Source of the DNA: Oscillospiraceae bacterium
GTDB taxonomy: Bacteria > Bacillota > Clostridia > Oscillospirales > CAG-272
NCBI GenBank assembly: GCA_015064285.1
Contig: SVSN01000006.1
Location: 6,975-70,974, forward strand
Length of the DNA: 64,000 nucleotides
Direction of reading: 5' to 3'
Each line of letters starts with the position of its first letter. Position 1 is the first letter of the stretch. Under the pieces are notes generated by a model, which worked only from the letters and a program-made list of their open reading frames with translations, searched no databases and had not been told where the DNA came from. Shown here piece after piece: positions 380-40,594 of the stretch. The translations under genes were made by a program, and so were the position numbers.

Positions 380-1720
380 ATGATGAGGAAAAATAAGTTG
401 GAAAGACAGATTAAAGTAGTCAAGTTCGGCGGCAGCTCCCTTGCCAGCGCTGAACAGTTCAAGAAAGTAAAAGACATCATTACCGCTGAGGAAAGCCGCC
501 GTTTTGTGGTTCCCTCCGCGCCCGGCAAGCGTTTCAGCGGAGACACCAAAGTGACAGATATGCTGTACGAATGCTACAACGTATCCGCCAGAGGCGAAGA
601 CATCACCGACATTTTCGCAGGGGTTCGCCAGCGCTACAACCAGATCATCGAAGGTCTGGGCCTGTCCCTGAATCTGGACGAAGAATACACCCACATCGAA
701 TGGGCCATCGCCCACCACGCAGGCCGTGACTACGCCGCCAGCCGTGGGGAATACCTGAACGGTATGATTCTGGCCGCTTATCTGGGTTATGACTTCATCG
801 ATCCCGCGCCTTTCGTACGGTTCGCCGACAACGGTGTGTACGATGCGGAAACCTCCCACAACCTGCTGACCGCTGAGCTGGCCAAGCACGAAACCGGCGT
901 TATCCCCGGCTTCTACGGTTCCATGCCCAACGGCACCATCCGCACCTTCTCCCGCGGCGGTTCCGATATCACCGGTTCCATCGTGGCAAGAGCGGTAAAC
1001 GCTGACATTTATGAAAACTGGACCGACGTAAACGGCTTCCTGATGGCCGACCCCCGGATCGTGGAAAATCCCAAGGGGATTGAAATCATCACCTACCGGG
1101 AACTGCGTGAGCTGTCCTACATGGGTGCAGGTGTGCTCCACGAAGACGCCATTTTCCCGGTTCGCTTCGCCGGTATCCCGGTCAACATCCGGAACACCAA
1201 CAACCCCGGCGACCCCGGCACCATGATCGTATCCAGCACCGACAAGTACGATACCGAGTCCATCATCACCGGTGTGGCCGGCAAGAAGGGCTTCTCCGTT
1301 GTAACCATAGAAAAGGCCATGATGAACGCAGAACGGGGCTTCGGCCGGAAAGTTCTGGAAGCCATCGAAAACGAAGGTATGTCCTTCGAGCATCTGCCCT
1401 CCGGCATCGACACCATGAGCGTAGTACTGAACTCCGCCGAGCTGGAACACTGCCGTGACCGGATCGTAAGCCGCATCAAATCCCTGGTAGAACCGGATTC
1501 TGTCTCCATTGACGACGGTCTGGCACTGGTTGCCGTTGTAGGCCGGGGCATGGTTATGGCAAAAGGTACAGCTGCCCGTGTGTTCAACGCCTGCGGCAAG
1601 GCCGGTGTCAATATCCGCATGATCGACCAGGGTTCCTCTGAGCTGAACATCATCATCGGTGTGGTGGAAGAAGATTTCGAAAAGGCCCTGTCTGCCATCT
1701 ACCACGAATTTGTAAAATAA
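380..1720 (+). CDS. aspartate kinase
   Basis: 446-aa ORF. It has the N-terminal VVKFGGSSLAS amino-acid-kinase ATP site and a C-terminal ACT-like regulatory half. In-frame TTG 398 behind GAGGA is an alternative start. Confidence 0.9.
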   Translation: MMRKNKLERQIKVVKFGGSSLASAEQFKKVKDIITAEESRRFVVPSAPGKRFSGDTKVTDMLYECYNVSARGEDITDIFAGVRQRYNQIIEGLGLSLNLDEEYTHIEWAIAHHAGRDYAASRGEYLNGMILAAYLGYDFIDPAPFVRFADNGVYDAETSHNLLTAELAKHETGVIPGFYGSMPNGTIRTFSRGGSDITGSIVARAVNADIYENWTDVNGFLMADPRIVENPKGIEIITYRELRELSYMGAGVLHEDAIFPVRFAGIPVNIRNTNNPGDPGTMIVSSTDKYDTESIITGVAGKKGFSVVTIEKAMMNAERGFGRKVLEAIENEGMSFEHLPSGIDTMSVVLNSAELEHCRDRIVSRIKSLVEPDSVSIDDGLALVAVVGRGMVMAKGTAARVFNACGKAGVNIRMIDQGSSELNIIIGVVEEDFEKALSAIYHEFVK

Positions 1721-34689: not shown

Positions 34690-34720
34690 TTACTTCTTAT
34701 TTCTTATTTTATACCTCTTA
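34690..34720 (-). repeat. heptad TAAGARR array, right arm of site B
   Basis: Minus strand reads TAAGAGGTATAAAATAAGAAATAAGAAGTAA, starting with the stop codon of the ATPase gene. TAA occurs in all three frames. Confidence 0.65.
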
Positions 34721-36988
34721 CTTCTCCCACACCGTTCCCCGCATACGGTAGGCGGCGGCTTTAACGTCACGCAGACGGGGAAGATCCAGAAAACGGGCAC
34801 AGTCGGTGAAGAAGCTGGAGAATACCGCTTCCACGCCTTCGGTTGCCATCTGGCAGTACAGAGCAGTAAGGGCACTGTCCAGATCCACCGTTTCCGTTTT
34901 CTTTCTGATCATCAGGGCACGAAGGATGAATGCCGCGCCGTTCTGCTGGCCGGTAGTTTTCAGGCCGCTGATGTCCCGGATGTCAATCACTTCATCCCCG
35001 ATCCGGATCACTCCCAGCTCATCCACTGACAGCCGTTCCGTGCCGCTTCTTGCCGGGTAGGAAGAAAAACCTTCCCCGGACAGCACACGACTCTGCCGCC
35101 ACAAGCCCGGGTCTTCTTTGGTTTCCATACCATCCGGCGGCACATTCCCCATGTTTTCTTTCCAGACAGTTCCCGCTTCCTCCGTGGCGTCGGAAATCCG
35201 GAAGTCATCCATACGGTACACCCGGTCGGCCACGCCCAGATATTCACCGCTGCCGCCGATCACCAGAATGGACGACACCCCTGCCTCAGAAAGTTCCCTG
35301 ACCCTGTCGGTATATGGCGTGATGGGTTCGTGACGGATCAGGGCTTTCATCATCCGGTCACGGATCATAAAGTTGGTGGCAGACCGGTCTTCGTCAATCA
35401 GCAGCAGCTTCGCTCCGTCATGCACCGATTCCAGAATGTTGGCCGCCTGGGAGGTAGAGCCGGAAGCATGCTCCGTGGAAAAATCAGCCGGATCGCCGCC
35501 GGGAATCCACCGGATAAAGGGAGAGATATTAGCCCTTTTCACGCACCGTCCGTCCTCTGCCGCAATCTCCATGGCCGTTTCATCGGTGAGCACCAGTTCC
35601 CTGCCGTCCCCCCGGACATGGTTGTAAATCCCGGCGGCAATGGCATCCAGCAGGGTGGATTTTCCGGAGTAGCCGCCCCCGGTGATCACCGTCACCCCCC
35701 GGCGGATACCCATACCCTTCACCCCGGCCACTTCAATCTCGTCCGCCGGAACCGAGGTAAACGGAACCGCCGAAAGCAGCGGCCCGCCCAGATTGTTCCG
35801 GGGCAGAATACTGCCGTTGGCCAGAAACACACAATACCCGCTGTCCTTCAGGAACGTCCGGATCTGCTCCTGTTTTGCGGTCAGTTCCAGTGTTTTTTCC
35901 AGTTCCGCCGGGTCAAAATCCGCAATAAACCGTTCTATGGCATCCGGTAGGTCGGTGCAGAGCATTCTGATGGCTTTCTTCAGCTTCCCGGCAGGCAGCT
36001 GCACCTGGATCCGGATGCACAGGCAGGGACGGGGCGGTGTCAGCTTTTCATCCGGCAGCTGCAGTACCCTGCATCCGCTGATGTTTTCATAGTATTTGGT
36101 CGCGCACCGGGCAAAATACGCACTGTTCCGGGGCAGTACCGATGCGTCCGGGCGGTGGACATAATAGAATCCGTTTTCCTCCACGGGACGGCTCCGGTTG
36201 TCCAGCTCCGCATTCAGCGGATCAAAGTATCGGGCAATCCGGCGCAGGCAGTAGTCCGCGGCAGCCGTGGTATAGGGATTGGTGTACACATAGTTCACCG
36301 GCAGCTCCTCTGTGCCGTCATGCAGCTTTCCCGACAGCTCCGGCGGCAGGAATCTTGTCTCCGGAATCCCTACCACCACGGAGGGACAGCCCTTGTGCAT
36401 TTTGTCCGGCTCCTCCAGGGTATAGGAAATGTCGTCCTTCCAATAAGTAGAATCCTGTTCCCATTCCGGTTCCCGGGGAAGTGCTTCCGGATCCTCCGGC
36501 GGCAGGTACATATACAGCATCTTCCCGGCGTACACCGAAATGTTTCTGGGCGGCGAAGCTTCCCTGTCCTTATACTGATAAGTAGTCGTGTTTTCTTCCA
36601 TCTGCAGGAAGTACCATTTCAATCGTTTCAAATAGAAATTCTCCTTTGTGTCCTTGTACAGTCTGTCGAAGGGGATGGAAATCCGGATGTCCAGCCTCTG
36701 CGGCGCATTCCGGCTGCTGGGGGAGATCTCGTAGGACACATCGTCCTGCCAGTAGACCGGTTCCCAGTCGGTGTATTTTTCGTCCGTTGCCGGATCGTAT
36801 ACCTGCAGTACCCCATTGTACATCCGGGCGTAGCTGCAGTTGTCCCCTTTCAGAATCGCAAATAATCTTCTCGTAAAGGCTTCCTCCTTATGCTTCTCTC
36901 GTGCTGGTTCTGTGTCCCCGGCCGTTTCACGGCAGCAAAAAACACACCCGTGCCGCTTCTGTCCGTTGGTATCGGGCATGGGCGGCAT
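34718..36988 (-). CDS. ABC_ATPase (PF09818-like) P-loop protein with expanded N-terminal region
   Basis: It has the ITGGGYSGKSTLLDAIAAGIYNH P-loop and LLLIDEDRSATNFM. The N-terminal ~190 aa contain an internal duplication. The start is uncertain: ATG 36988 and 36979 lack an SD. Confidence 0.75.
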   Translation of the reverse strand: MPPMPDTNGQKRHGCVFCCRETAGDTEPAREKHKEEAFTRRLFAILKGDNCSYARMYNGVLQVYDPATDEKYTDWEPVYWQDDVSYEISPSSRNAPQRLDIRISIPFDRLYKDTKENFYLKRLKWYFLQMEENTTTYQYKDREASPPRNISVYAGKMLYMYLPPEDPEALPREPEWEQDSTYWKDDISYTLEEPDKMHKGCPSVVVGIPETRFLPPELSGKLHDGTEELPVNYVYTNPYTTAAADYCLRRIARYFDPLNAELDNRSRPVEENGFYYVHRPDASVLPRNSAYFARCATKYYENISGCRVLQLPDEKLTPPRPCLCIRIQVQLPAGKLKKAIRMLCTDLPDAIERFIADFDPAELEKTLELTAKQEQIRTFLKDSGYCVFLANGSILPRNNLGGPLLSAVPFTSVPADEIEVAGVKGMGIRRGVTVITGGGYSGKSTLLDAIAAGIYNHVRGDGRELVLTDETAMEIAAEDGRCVKRANISPFIRWIPGGDPADFSTEHASGSTSQAANILESVHDGAKLLLIDEDRSATNFMIRDRMMKALIRHEPITPYTDRVRELSEAGVSSILVIGGSGEYLGVADRVYRMDDFRISDATEEAGTVWKENMGNVPPDGMETKEDPGLWRQSRVLSGEGFSSYPARSGTERLSVDELGVIRIGDEVIDIRDISGLKTTGQQNGAAFILRALMIRKKTETVDLDSALTALYCQMATEGVEAVFSSFFTDCARFLDLPRLRDVKAAAYRMRGTVWEK

Positions 36989-37038
36989 ACCGGGTGTGCC
37001 TGTGGGAGAAAAAACACACCCGGGGTTCGGATGTGTGT
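36942..37038 (-). promoter_or_regulatory. candidate transcription attenuator: two terminator-shaped hairpins with shared 3' half CGGGTGTGT+U5 and competing alternative pairings
   Basis: B ACACACATCCG (37038-37028) pairs with C CGGGTGTGT (37022-14) followed by U5. D CACACCCGG (36998-90) pairs with E CGGGTGTGT (36950-42) followed by U5. C can also pair with D, and B with segment A inside the sORF. Confidence 0.5.
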
Positions 37039-37062
37039 CAGATTCTTATGAAGTAATCCTGT

Positions 37063-37122
37063 TTAAGCTGCAGTTACGGCGCAGGCGACACAGATATCCG
37101 AAAACATATTACCGTTTTTCAT
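37063..37122 (-). CDS. 19-codon sORF (MKNGNMFSDICVACAVTAA), candidate leader peptide or small peptide gene
   Basis: GGAGG lies 9 nt before ATG 37122 and the TAA is at 37065-37063. It has its own consensus promoter upstream and a terminator downstream. Confidence 0.45.
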   Translation of the reverse strand: MKNGNMFSDICVACAVTAA

Positions 37123-37179
37123 AATCATTCGCCTCCGTTTCCTTTGAAATGGGTTTCCCGGATCCCTCCGGGTGATTTT

Positions 37180-37208
37180 ATCATATCACACACTATGGCA
37201 TATGTCAA
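37180..37208 (-). promoter_or_regulatory. sigma-A type promoter of the sORF/ATPase unit
   Basis: Minus strand has TTGACA (37208-03), 17 nt, TATGAT (37185-80). Confidence 0.55.
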
Positions 37209-37226
37209 GGTGTTTTCAAAAATTTC

Positions 37227-38033
37227 TCAGAACACCGGAAAAACCAGTCTGCCTGCTTCATCCGCATGAGGTTCCAGCAGCCGGATATGGCGGTATGCCG
37301 GAAATCTTGCCAGACAATTCCGCAGGATACAGAAAAGTACCTTCTGCATTCCCGGTTCTTCGCCTGTTTTCACTATGCTGCTTTTCTCCCGGAGAAATAA
37401 GAGCATCTGCTGCCGGTATCTTTCGATTTCCGGCAGGGCAACCGTCTCCGGCAGTTCCGACAGACAGAGATAAAAATACCACATGGTCTGCCATGGCCGT
37501 TTTTTCTCTCCGTAATGCCGGTGAAATACGCCGATTCTGTCCCGCAGCCAACCAATGTTCTCCGGACATACCGTTCCCAGATACCGCAGGGCAATCAGGT
37601 TTGTATCAAAGCATTCGCCCATGCCGTCATCTTCATTTGCAAAGCAGGTGTGCCGCAGCCGCGCTACAGTCTTGTCATTCATATCCTGCACATCCGGGTG
37701 TTCCGGCACAAGCAGCGTCAGCAGCCGCAGGATTTCCAGTTCATATCCGTTGGCGGACAAAATATGGGTAGCCGGCAGCTGGCCGAGAATGGTACGGTAT
37801 TTCTCTCCGCCATGATAAGGGGGAATCATATACTCAGGGTACAGCCGCCTTCCTCCGGTATCCCGGTTCCCCGGAAATCGAACAGCGGAATAAAACCGTG
37901 CGGCAGTCTCTCTGGATGACCGTGCGGAGAGCAGCAAGGACACCAGTTTTTCCCGCTCCGCTGCCGGAATAAAAGCCGTCCCCCTGCAGAGTATCCGGTA
38001 ATTGGTCTGCACCATCGCTTCGTACGGTGTCAT
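37227..38033 (-). CDS. hypothetical alpha-helical protein (268 aa)
   Basis: Its start overlaps the upstream stop by 4 nt (ATGA). Codon usage resembles the neighbours. No recognised domain. Confidence 0.7.
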   Translation of the reverse strand: MTPYEAMVQTNYRILCRGTAFIPAAEREKLVSLLLSARSSRETAARFYSAVRFPGNRDTGGRRLYPEYMIPPYHGGEKYRTILGQLPATHILSANGYELEILRLLTLLVPEHPDVQDMNDKTVARLRHTCFANEDDGMGECFDTNLIALRYLGTVCPENIGWLRDRIGVFHRHYGEKKRPWQTMWYFYLCLSELPETVALPEIERYRQQMLLFLREKSSIVKTGEEPGMQKVLFCILRNCLARFPAYRHIRLLEPHADEAGRLVFPVF

Positions 38034-38974
38034 GGGTTTTCTCCTGCCGCCAGTCTGCGCACCGCATTTTCATTTGCCGCCAGCGCGCCGTCCGTTTCCA
38101 CCGAAAGCCTGCGCAGGTTTTCCATCACATGATCCAGTTCCTTGTCCAGCTCCTGCACTTTCCATCGTGCGCCTCTTATTCTGTCAAGCACAGCAAAATC
38201 CACAAAAATCCCGTCCCAGAAGAAGTCCGCAAACCGGGTGAATTCGTCAATCTCCACCTGTACATCCGCATACACCGCCACATCCGCCAGTTCGGCGTGA
38301 AATTCGCTGAGCAGCTTTTGCAGAGACTGGCTCATGCTGCCCGCTTTGTCCAGATGGTCGTATTTCGCGATATCCGCAAGAAGTCCGCCGCCGCCCCAGG
38401 CATCCCATCTGCCCAGATTTTCCGCATCACCAAGTTCTCTGTCGATCTGTGCCGCCAGTGCTTTCACCCGTTTTCCGGCGGTACAGGCTTCGTCCACTTC
38501 TCTTTTCCGCGCTCTGATCCCTTCCGCTTCCTTTTCCAGCCTGGCCAATTCTTCCGCCGCAGGGCCTGCCTGTGCCCGGATCTGCTGTTCTCTTTCCTCC
38601 AGACACTGTTCGTATTCCCGCTTGGCTTTTTTCAGTTCCCGCAGCTGTAGGGTAATCTCCTGGGTCTGCAGGCCGATTTCCGTCAGCCGGTTCTGTGCGT
38701 CCTCATATTTCGCCAGAGCCGCCGCCGCTTCCGCCTGTTCTCTTGTCAGTCTGTCCTGAAAAGTATTTTTCTGCAGTCTGGCCAGAAAGCCCTTCAGCGT
38801 CCGGCCGGTCAACTCCTCCACATCCCCCTGCTCTTCCGCCGCCTGCCGGGCATATATCTCCATACCGGTCTGCAGTTCTCTTTCTTCCTTCTGCAGAAGC
38901 CGCAGCTTCGCTTCCAGCTTATGCTTCTGATGCAGTTTTGCCTCCAGCTCCTGCAGTCTCTCCCTGTTCTCCAT
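38030..38974 (-). CDS. hypothetical coiled-coil protein (314 aa)
   Basis: Trimmed to ATG 38974, 5 nt after GGGAGG. It has about 190 aa of heptad-like E/K/L/Q/R-rich sequence, then WDAWGGGGLLADIAKYDHLDKA and a helical C-terminus. Confidence 0.7.
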   Translation of the reverse strand: MENRERLQELEAKLHQKHKLEAKLRLLQKEERELQTGMEIYARQAAEEQGDVEELTGRTLKGFLARLQKNTFQDRLTREQAEAAAALAKYEDAQNRLTEIGLQTQEITLQLRELKKAKREYEQCLEEREQQIRAQAGPAAEELARLEKEAEGIRARKREVDEACTAGKRVKALAAQIDRELGDAENLGRWDAWGGGGLLADIAKYDHLDKAGSMSQSLQKLLSEFHAELADVAVYADVQVEIDEFTRFADFFWDGIFVDFAVLDRIRGARWKVQELDKELDHVMENLRRLSVETDGALAANENAVRRLAAGENP

Positions 38975-39002
38975 ATAATCCTCCCATCTTTTATTTGACA
39001 GC

Positions 39003-39031
39003 AGTATACCACATTTCCCCTGCATTGTCAA
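39003..39031 (-). promoter_or_regulatory. sigma-A type promoter of the coiled-coil operon
   Basis: Minus strand has TTGACA (39031-26), 17 nt, TATACT (39008-03). Confidence 0.55.
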
Positions 39032-39107
39032 CAGGACACCGAAAATTTGTTCCGTACTCATACCAAAAAAGAACGACCCACCATCATCGGCAGGCCGCCC
39101 CTTTTCA

Positions 39108-39139
39108 TATACTTCTTATCTCTTGCATCTTATCTCTTA
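39108..39139 (-). repeat. heptad TAAGARR array, single arm (site C)
   Basis: Minus strand reads TAAGAGATAAGATGCAAGAGATAAGAAGTATA, starting with the SBP gene's stop codon. Confidence 0.6.
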
Positions 39140-40594
39140 TTTTTCTTCCAGTGCCTTGAACAGTTCGATAACATCATTGATGTTCTTTGCCTGTGTCTTG
39201 GTTTGGGATGCGTAAAAGGATGCCCATTCCTTCACATTGCCTCTGGCCAGAAAGTCCAGCGTGTAGGTAAAGCCCCACTTATCATAGATTTCCGCAAAGT
39301 CAGCGGTACGTCCCTGCACCACGATATCGATCATTTCATAAGATGCTTCGTCACGGGTATACTTGGATTTCAGCGCCACTTCATAAACGGCGGGACGGAT
39401 CTGCTTATACCCTTCTGCTGCCATAGCCTCCAGAATCAGAGATGCATACTGCAGACCTTCTTCATTCTTCACAATCGGAATCCCCACCGCAGAGGTATGT
39501 GCAGTAGCGTGGGTATAATGCTCATCCTGGGTTTCATCCAGTTTGACAACGGGCAGAATCCCGAAATCCTGTTCCATATCCCGGAAGGTGCTGGAAGATG
39601 CCTTCAGGCTGTTCATCTGGAACAGTACTCTGCCTTCCTTGAAAGCTTCGGAAGCAGGTGTACCGGTTTCATCCATAATGATGTAGTCGTTGTCAAAGTA
39701 AAAGCTCTTGAGCGTATCAAAAATGGCTACCATCCGTTCGGTATTGATAGCTTCCACAGGATACCCGTCGGCATCACGGCTGGTGACCGGCTGGTTCCAG
39801 GCAAACTGGTACACAAATCCAAATCCGCAGGCCTGTCCGTAGCCAAACTGATCCTTAGTGAAATCCATGGCACCATCGCCGTCCAGATCCGTACCGGCAA
39901 TGGAGCAGAGCTCCTTCATTTTGTCAATGGTCCACTTGCCTTCCTTGACCACAGAATACAGATCATCATCTCCGGTCAGGTCGATCAGCAGCTCCTTGTT
40001 GAAGTAAATGCATACATTGTCATAGTAATTGTCCAGATCATACATCCCTACGATCACATAGGCGCGTCCGCCGATGGAATAGGCTTCGTTTACCTTCTGA
40101 TACCACCAGGGCTTGGCAAAATCGATGTATCCGGCTGTAGAAATATCCGCCAGGTACCCGGCAGCGGCAGAGTCACCCAGATGCTTGTAATGCCATATGG
40201 CAACCTCGCACATATCGTCCCCGGCCTGTACGGCATTGTTCAGATCGGTAGCCTCTGCATCCGGTGCCAGGAACGGTTCGGAAAACTTCACATTGAACCG
40301 TTCTTCAATGGTAAGGTTCCGTTCGTACACAGCATCGGATACCACATCCCCTGTCTGTTCAGCCATATACACACCGTCAGCATGGCTGACACAACAGTTT
40401 CTGGTATAAATCCTGTAGTCTGCACCGCCGTAATCCATATCCGGCAGGTTATCCGGAATCTCGGTTTCAGCCGGTTCCGTTTCTGCCGCTGCAGTATCAG
40501 CCGCCAGAGTTTCTGTTTCCGCAGAAGTGTCCGAGCAGCCGGCAAGGGCAGACGCGATCATCAGAAGTGCCATTAGAAAAGACAGTTTTTTCAT
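39137..40594 (-). CDS. extracellular solute-binding lipoprotein, paralogue 2
   Basis: GGAGGAA precedes the ATG. It has lipobox ALAGCS and shares sequence blocks with the SBPs at 31201 and 60995. Confidence 0.85.
   Translation of the reverse strand: MKKLSFLMALLMIASALAGCSDTSAETETLAADTAAAETEPAETEIPDNLPDMDYGGADYRIYTRNCCVSHADGVYMAEQTGDVVSDAVYERNLTIEERFNVKFSEPFLAPDAEATDLNNAVQAGDDMCEVAIWHYKHLGDSAAAGYLADISTAGYIDFAKPWWYQKVNEAYSIGGRAYVIVGMYDLDNYYDNVCIYFNKELLIDLTGDDDLYSVVKEGKWTIDKMKELCSIAGTDLDGDGAMDFTKDQFGYGQACGFGFVYQFAWNQPVTSRDADGYPVEAINTERMVAIFDTLKSFYFDNDYIIMDETGTPASEAFKEGRVLFQMNSLKASSSTFRDMEQDFGILPVVKLDETQDEHYTHATAHTSAVGIPIVKNEEGLQYASLILEAMAAEGYKQIRPAVYEVALKSKYTRDEASYEMIDIVVQGRTADFAEIYDKWGFTYTLDFLARGNVKEWASFYASQTKTQAKNINDVIELFKALEEK

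Follow-up and report, generated by a model that had tools for sequence, protein, structure and literature searches.

The question raised by this 64,000-nucleotide (64-kb) stretch of an Oscillospiraceae bacterium genome (GenBank assembly GCA_015064285.1, contig SVSN01000006.1, positions 6,975 to 70,974), hereafter the window, is what a promoter, a short open reading frame (sORF) and five interlocking copies of one word are doing directly ahead of a gene for a PF09818 ATPase. The PF09818 family (COG3044-type 'ABC-class ATPase') is widespread, and we know of no function established for it in bacteria. Our answer, to which we give a probability of roughly 0.55, is that positions 37208-36875 carry a promoter and a leader of ~300 nt acting as a six-segment ribosome-dependent transcription attenuator of the ATPase gene. 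The design read from the sequence is that of an anti-anti-terminator (segments 1:2), an anti-terminator (2:3) and a terminator (3:4), extended in most loci by 4:5 versus 5:6. The six proposed segments are the Shine-Dalgarno (SD) sequence and AUG of the sORF, word A with an anti-SD (sORF codons 7-15), and the words B, C, D and E. All coordinates refer to the minus strand of the window, and the features of the leader are as follows.

37180-37208, minus strand: sigma-70-type promoter, with the -35 box TTGACA (37208-37203), a 17-nt spacer with TG and the -10 box TATGAT (37185-37180).
37157-37172, minus strand: 5'-proximal hairpin CCCGGA-GGGA-UCCGGG, from sequence and fold.
37117-37143, minus strand: segment 1, the 5' arm of the putative anti-anti-terminator, including the SD and AUG of the sORF.
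37063-37122, minus strand: leader sORF, 19 codons plus TAA (37065-63), reading MKNGNMFSDICVACAVTAA.
About 37077-37104, minus strand: segment 2, word A plus the anti-SD UCGCCUGCGCCGU (37088-37076), predicted to pair with segment 1 or with B.
37100-37088, minus strand: word A, CGGAUAUCUGUGU, inside the sORF.
37040-37059, minus strand: spacer hairpin between the sORF stop and B, in the minimum free energy (MFE) fold.
37038-28 and 37022-14, minus strand: words B and C, C continuing in a T-run to 37009.
37009-37041, minus strand: predicted terminator 1 (T1), with the B arm (37038-28, CUG extension from 37041), a loop, the C arm (37022-14) and a U-tract (37013-09).
36998-90 and 36950-42, minus strand: words D and E, E continuing in a T-run to 36937.
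36937-36999, minus strand: predicted terminator 2 (T2), with the D arm (36999-90), an inner stem (36987-82/36956-51), the E arm (36950-42) and a U-tract (36941-37).

A preliminary description of this stretch had already located the promoter, the early GGGA-tetraloop hairpin (37172-37157), the sORF with its GGAGG and the words A to E, all of which were found in their places. It had missed a second in-frame ATG of the sORF at 37128, merely 3 nt from the SD (GGAGG, 37136-37132), which itself lies 9 nt ahead of the ATG at 37122-37120.

For comparative analysis, the window was set beside 17 relatives (18 loci in all) obtained from a genome scan and look-ups. The relatives are metagenome-assembled genomes of Clostridia, Ruminococcus-like bacteria and Oscillospiraceae, sampled in rumen, gut and sediment, with ATPase identities of 48-84%. 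A promoter with TTGACA and an extended -10, one or more 5' hairpins, an SD-led sORF and one or more terminators were found directly upstream of the orthologous ATPase in 17/17 relatives. The genes upstream of the leader differ by locus (SNF transporter, LacI, RsgA/TPK, MCP and others), and because these neighbours differ while the leader stays, the leader belongs to the ATPase gene. The preliminary description had suggested searching upstream of PF09818 homologues for a conserved sORF and covarying stems. The sORF and terminators were recovered in every relative, and the pairings proved stronger in cognate than in non-cognate combinations (given below); comparative evidence supports its proposal of a ribosome-mediated attenuator made from one repeated word ahead of this ATPase.

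The word itself is local. The 13-mer CGGGTGTGTTTTT has exactly two copies in the window, both in this leader; with up to two mismatches it has 8 matches against 1.6 expected, a number reached in 0/100 shuffles, and the remaining near-matches fall in coding sequence. A dispersed repeat or repetitive extragenic palindrome (REP)-like terminator word was therefore excluded. The 251-nt leader folds better than 200/200 shuffles (z = -3.35). Searched against Rfam 15, positions 36000-38000 gave nothing relevant at E<=10, only sub-threshold snoRNA and TLS noise, and the leaders of the 17 relatives gave no match at gathering score.

The core of the pairing between segments 1 and 2 in the window is ACGG-A-GGCGA / UCGCC-nn-CCGU, with a duplex energy of -18.5 kcal/mol. 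Pairing was tested against shuffled sequences in 15 loci, and cognate was compared with non-cognate pairing in a matrix of 14 lineages with 20000 permutations. Segment 1:2 complementarity was present in 15/15 loci and significant against shuffles (p<=0.05) in 9, where the per-locus p-values are not independent, the loci being phylogenetically related. Cognate pairs averaged -21.1 kcal/mol versus -16.8 kcal/mol for non-cognate ones, and 0/20000 permutations reached the observed value (p<5e-5). The sequences vary by lineage: besides GGCGA/UCGCC we found AGGGAUC/GAUCCCU (L096), GGCGAUC/GAUCGCC (L098), GCGCAUGAUU/AAUCAUGUGC (L095) and CCAA..GGCG/CGCC.UUGG (L099). The five-segment scheme of the preliminary description was thus right about its five words and lacked this sixth segment, the SD/AUG region that pairs with A and the anti-SD.

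Segment 2 can alternatively pair with B (2:3, or A:B; -14.1 kcal/mol in the window). This complementarity lies at sORF codons 7-16 in every locus, is significant against shuffles (p<=0.03) in 9/15 loci, and is stronger in cognate than in non-cognate combinations (p=0.017, 14 lineages). It is built from new nucleotides in L095 (UGUGCUGUA/UACAGCACA) and covaries in L102 (GGAUGuCGU/ACGCAUCC). The two alternatives open to segment 2 share 17 nt in the window, and each of the 15 loci tested has an overlap of 9 nt or more between 1:2 and 2:3. These results bear out the earlier suggestion that A:B competes with the B:C hairpin. Between the sORF stop and B, a spacer hairpin is also present in relatives, by eye, with different sequence.

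T1 (B:C) was found in 18/18 loci and has, by terminator scan and folding, 9 pairs, a 5-nt loop, T6 and a free energy of -12.5 kcal/mol in the window, as a hairpin followed by a U-tract just as first described. Compensatory changes in its arms occur in L098, L100, L101 and L102. A second terminator is present in 15/18 loci, the exceptions being L097, L098 and L100. In the window, the D:E pairing had been described as a hairpin of its own; it is present, and forms only the base of a longer hairpin (36999-36942, -31.2 kcal/mol) with the inner stem tgccgc/gcggca. D can instead pair with C (37023-15 : 36998-90, 9 bp). When B was masked in the window, C:D had a probability of 0.99 and T2 of 0.01, and with B unavailable C:D formed and T2 fell to <=0.04 in 8/12 two-terminator loci. 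The 3' arm of T1 (C) can thus, on these folds, double as an anti-terminator for T2 in most loci. The terminator arms keep the core CAYCC...GGRUG in nearly all loci down to 48% identity, and the word is frozen across divergent genomes because several segments must each match two partners. The automatic hairpin finder gave long-range alternatives (B:E with nested C:D) at some loci, and hand-defined arms were used thereafter.

The sORF separates frame from peptide. An SD-led open frame of 15-25 codons with an AUG, usually starting MK, was present in 18/18 loci, and its stop precedes the spacer in 18/18, lying 24-69 nt ahead of B and T1 (farther in one locus). Codon differences were counted in five close pairs for the sORF and, for the adjacent ATPase codons, in four well-aligned pairs (L092/L093 excluded for an indel misalignment). 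The ATPase codons had synonymous >= non-synonymous differences; the sORF had 2 synonymous versus 20 non-synonymous, that is, no purifying selection on its peptide in these pairs. In the conserved 3' half of the sORF the third positions of GAT, GTC and GCC are invariant while the amino acids vary, and the conserved CCGU is in a different frame in the window than in other loci. Because third positions are fixed, amino acids free and the CCGU frame shifted, the constraint there is at the level of RNA. That the frame is kept and the peptide is not argues for a regulatory leader ORF rather than a peptide gene, and disfavours the alternative, raised in the preliminary description, of an independent Cys/Ser/Thr-containing peptide gene.

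The promoter scored 11/12 in a scan for promoter-like sites, with TG preceding the -10 box, and its -35 and extended -10 (TGTGnTATnnT) are invariant columns in the six-locus alignment A1. Transcription would start near 37173. One or two hairpins occupy the 5' position in every relative, with unrelated sequences, and the 5'-proximal hairpin is likely a stabiliser or insulator.

From these elements, their conservation and their mutually exclusive complementarities, we infer that the sORF is translated and that transcription is terminated at the hairpins, along with the direction and signal of the switch. In the OFF state, probably the default, 1:2 would hide the sORF's own ribosome-binding site (RBS), 3:4 would make T1 and 5:6 would make T2 as a back-up, with transcripts ending near 37009 or 36937. 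In the ON state, a ribosome that occupies the start codon or one of the first 2-3 codons, and with it segment 1, would leave segment 2 free. Segment 2 would then catch B on emergence and block T1, the freed C would take D and block T2, and RNA polymerase would read into the ATPase gene, whose own translation would begin at a weak ACG. A ribosome at codon 6 or anywhere from there to the stop would cover segment 2 or release it unprotected from segment 1, and termination would prevail. The signal is most likely stalling at initiation or early elongation rather than shortage of a single amino acid.

To model the ribosome, base-pair probabilities were computed at equilibrium for transcripts ending at the T1 3' end, with a 28-34-nt footprint forced unpaired. 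Counts are over 17 informative loci; L103 was left out as its arm definition gave a 2-nt loop. The probability of T1 was ~0.9-0.97 in free RNA or with the ribosome at codon 6, at codon 10 or at the last sense codon. Values under 0.5 required the P-site to be at codons 1-3 and occurred in 9/17 loci including the window, where T1 was at 0.14-0.42 depending on the mask and A:B took its place in the masked MFE fold.

Several observations weigh against this reading. The window value is sensitive to the exact mask, ranging from 0.14 to 0.77. A ribosome parked at the start had no effect in 7 loci (L002, L003, L097-L101) and a modest one in L001; kinetics may matter in these seven, as transcription reaches C only after A:B has had the chance to form. 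Statistical support for A:B is weak in L096-L100 (p 0.12-0.7), and the covariation of A:B is limited since the loci share the word. C:D is missing in L096 and L103, where the stem of the second terminator is unrelated to the word, and three loci have T1 alone. Hence the even/odd zipper proposed earlier holds in that C:D replaces T2 in most two-terminator loci when B is unavailable, and its C:D/D:E half is an add-on and not the core. No arrest motif or codon run points to the signal: RLR and IFVI are absent from all 18 sORF peptides, and the sORFs examined have no run of regulatory codons for one amino acid. Attenuation is also read here from sequence, comparison and equilibrium folding.

One candidate signal was set aside. 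Ser-Asp occurs at sORF codons 7-10 in ~11 loci, encoded by the word UCGGAU, and a chloramphenicol-type 'S-D' arrest was discarded, together with Cys-sensing, as neither is conserved and a ribosome stalling at that point would sit on the anti-terminator.

The alternative that survives best, although we consider it unlikely, reverses the logic. Efficient sORF translation coupled to RNA polymerase would give read-through, and absent or lagging ribosomes termination; a ribosome at the stop would hold the anti-SD and leave A free for B, and the ATPase would be made only at high translation capacity. The geometry suits it, as a terminating ribosome (P-site 37068-66) would cover the CCGU of the anti-SD and not A, and the stop is far enough before B that a coupled ribosome would arrive before B emerges. 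However, in the equilibrium model a ribosome at the last sense codon left T1 at 0.87-0.98 in all loci except L100 (0.64), and pairing persists between the AUG-proximal part of segment 1 and the 5' part of A.

More doubtful is a factor acting in trans, in which an RNA-binding protein, possibly the ATPase itself, would read CGGRUGUGU/ACACAYCCG and set termination, the sORF being secondary. Conservation of CAYCC...GGRUG to the extent found here is unusual for terminator stems, and the ATPase is related to the RNA-binding protein MRB1590 (PMC4538832). Yet the need to match two partners (A:B:C:D:E) should be enough to freeze such segments, with no protein involved; most of the word has been dropped in L098 (GCGCGCAUCC) and from the second terminators of L096 and L103; and neither the SD-led sORF, which is conserved, nor the covariation of SD with anti-SD would be explained.

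Still less probable is that there is no regulation, and that an independent peptide or small-RNA gene with two constitutive terminators precedes an ATPase with its own promoter. The unit is indeed self-contained, having a promoter, RBS, ORF and terminators. Against this stand the lack of purifying selection on the peptide, the position of the unit directly upstream of the ATPase whatever the neighbours, and the covarying alternative pairings, which it does not explain; moreover, the minus-strand promoter scan found no further promoter-like site between T2 and the ATPase start. The weakest alternative, a Cys attenuator in which Cys codons in segment 2 sense Cys-tRNA charging, has frequent Cys codons (2 in the window, 4 in L096, ~6% overall) and the Cys-sensing short ORFs reported in mycobacteria (bioRxiv 10.1101/834739) in its favour, and is very improbable given that five loci have no Cys codon (L003, L004, L098, L101, L102), that the UGU/UGC codons belong to the GUGU/UGC pairing word, that stalling at these codons would occlude the anti-terminator and turn the gene off on starvation, and that nothing known connects the ATPase with Cys metabolism.

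For the point at which the ATPase gene begins, the following features are relevant.

34718-36874, minus strand: ATPase with PF09818 (ABC_ATPase) and MRB1590_C, ~718 aa, Pfam E=8e-93.
36986-36988, minus strand: ATG opening the mechanical ORF, judged not to be the true start.
36872-36889, minus strand: ATPase RBS AAGGAGG (36889-83), 8 nt, and apparent start ACG (36874-72), aligning with the MKRL N-terminus of homologues.

The mechanical ORF (34718-36988) has 756 codons, PF09818 spanning residues 361-613 and MRB1590_C forming the C-terminal end; relatives in the PDB are 5d6a and MRB1590 (4yix). The ATG at 36988 was rejected as the start. It has no SD, and the closest genome match (L005, 84% identity) reads ATG CCG TAA at its position, so the upstream extension is a chance open frame. 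Homologues cover ~92-95% of the mechanical ORF, beginning ~38 codons later, and their N-termini (M-K/R-R-L...F..M..T.TY..MY.G) align with T-R-R-L-F-A-I-L...ARMYNG of the window. The ATPase thus appears to begin at a non-canonical ACG at 36874. With the true start there, both terminators, E included, sit in a ~300-nt untranslated leader, and not, as the preliminary description had it for E, within the first 20 codons of a long ORF starting at 36988, an extension that is not conserved.

The codon at the start position is ACG in L005, ATC in L001, L094, L002-L004 and L095, ATG in L092, L093, L096 and L097, GTG in L098, and TTG in L099-L103. A strong SD precedes the non-canonical starts by 8-9 nt, and their frame is that of the conserved x-K/R/E-R-L N-terminus. 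Approximate start positions in the relatives are ~3003 (L005), ~2940 (L001), 2480 (L094), ~2950 (L002-L004) and ~1473 (L095). In L095 there is no canonical start between an in-frame stop at -57 and the ATC. Public gene models can be corrected accordingly: callers put the ATPase start too early (inside T2) or too late, because the true start is ACG or ATC.

In two relatives a second short ORF was seen near the ATPase start. In L103 (~1135-1205) it is SD-led, lies between T2 and the TTG start, and its stop overlaps the TTG (AUUUGA); in L099 (~1452-1520) an SD-led short ORF crosses the TTG start in another frame and stops ~20 nt beyond. These may form a translational-coupling layer. Pfam gives no match for the ~240 residues ahead of the PF09818 domain. 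In the first part of this region (window ~36200-36874, ATPase residues ~1-190 counted from the ACG) a ~100-aa module (KRLK..F..ME..T.TY ... YW.DD.SY ... I.IP) seems to be duplicated in tandem, the two halves matching each other by BLASTP at E=5e-5.

On the other side of the leader, a 268-aa ORF stops 19 nt before the -35 box, with no obvious terminator between. It is one of three consecutive ORFs (268, 343 and 485 aa; 37227-40594, minus strand) without a Pfam family, of which the 485-aa ORF has a weak lipoprotein-signal match only. In L095 a tRNA gene (884-965, minus strand) lies ~170 nt upstream of the leader promoter. A metagenome search with the pattern GAAACGGAGGCGAAN{3,8}ATGAAA gave 86 stretches; each was the ordinary SD+ATG start of a long gene, and the leader was in none of them. 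The same gene start (GAAACGGAGGCGAAGGTATGAAAGAAGAACCTGCACTC...), unrelated to the leader, was matched in 17 metagenome contigs (L006, L012, L023, L025, L027, L028, L033, L049, L054, L055, L062, L063, L066, L080, L081, L085 and L088), slightly different in L062 and L081, and evidently belongs to a very common gut-metagenome gene.

By analogy, the closest experimentally established system is rli80-hflXr (lmo0762) of Listeria monocytogenes, in which a 14-codon ORF lies over an anti-anti-terminator and lincomycin- or erythromycin-stalled ribosomes lead to read-through (PMC6310831). Both have a promoter (constitutive in rli80-hflXr), a short ORF over the anti-anti-terminator, an anti-terminator, an intrinsic terminator and then an NTPase gene; in rli80-hflXr the regulated gene is translation-related, and read-through follows early stalling in the leader ORF (PMC6310831). 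The window leader differs in having no RLR motif, in a predicted anti-anti-terminator that includes the leader ORF's own SD and AUG, in two predicted terminators at most loci, linked by a putative C:D relay, and in a PF09818 ATPase rather than a GTPase as target. In bmrB-bmrCD of Bacillus subtilis, the leader ORF likewise harbours alternative stem-loops, a terminator among them, and its translation is required for induced read-through into ATPase-encoding genes (PMC4191407). There the terminator is inside the leader coding region, whereas here the sORF ends before T1, and the bmrCD target is a transporter, which the window target is not.

As in the his and trp attenuators of enterobacteria, overlapping segments of the window zipper pair even or odd, and the his leader is a multi-helix cascade (A:B, C:D, E:F versus B:C, D:E). 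In his/trp termination is confined to the last helix, and regulatory codons clustered in a run towards the end of the leader ORF act as the sensor, whereas the window has two predicted terminator helices, no codon run and its ribosome-sensitive segment at the ORF start. The ermC-type leaders share a 19-codon leader peptide and at least four alternately pairing segments. They control access to a downstream RBS and need a conserved arrest peptide; here the predicted output is termination of transcription, and the peptide diverges freely. By its sequence the leader is a new addition to the ribosome-dependent transcription attenuators, and its relay is unusual: one ribosome-sensed decision would be relayed through two consecutive terminators by re-using a single 9-nt word, and an SD-sequestering helix could serve as an anti-anti-terminator.

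The preliminary description had known of no such control for the PF09818 family, and likewise literature searches on PF09818 and MRB1590 gave no paper on regulation in bacteria. MRB1590, the trypanosome homologue, binds RNA (PMC4538832). Judged from its sequence, the leader most likely lets ribosome behaviour on the sORF decide ATPase production, and a leader of this kind would tie the PF09818 family to translation status. As a tentative possibility, with the odds clearly against it, the N-extended PF09818 ATPases of Clostridia may be translation-stress factors, induced by ribosomes that stay at the start or the first few codons of the leader ORF. If so, peptidyl-transferase-centre inhibitors would turn them on (lincosamides, pleuromutilins and streptogramin-A compounds, each of these classes having uses in livestock), as would initiation or early-elongation defects, in parallel to the ABC-F and HflXr resistance factors, and the conserved weak ACG/ATC start would make expression depend, at a second level, on initiation fidelity. 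The interest of the leader is mainly as a functional lead on these ATPases: it would offer a first way into the function of a large uncharacterised family, MRB1590 being the one relative that has been studied.

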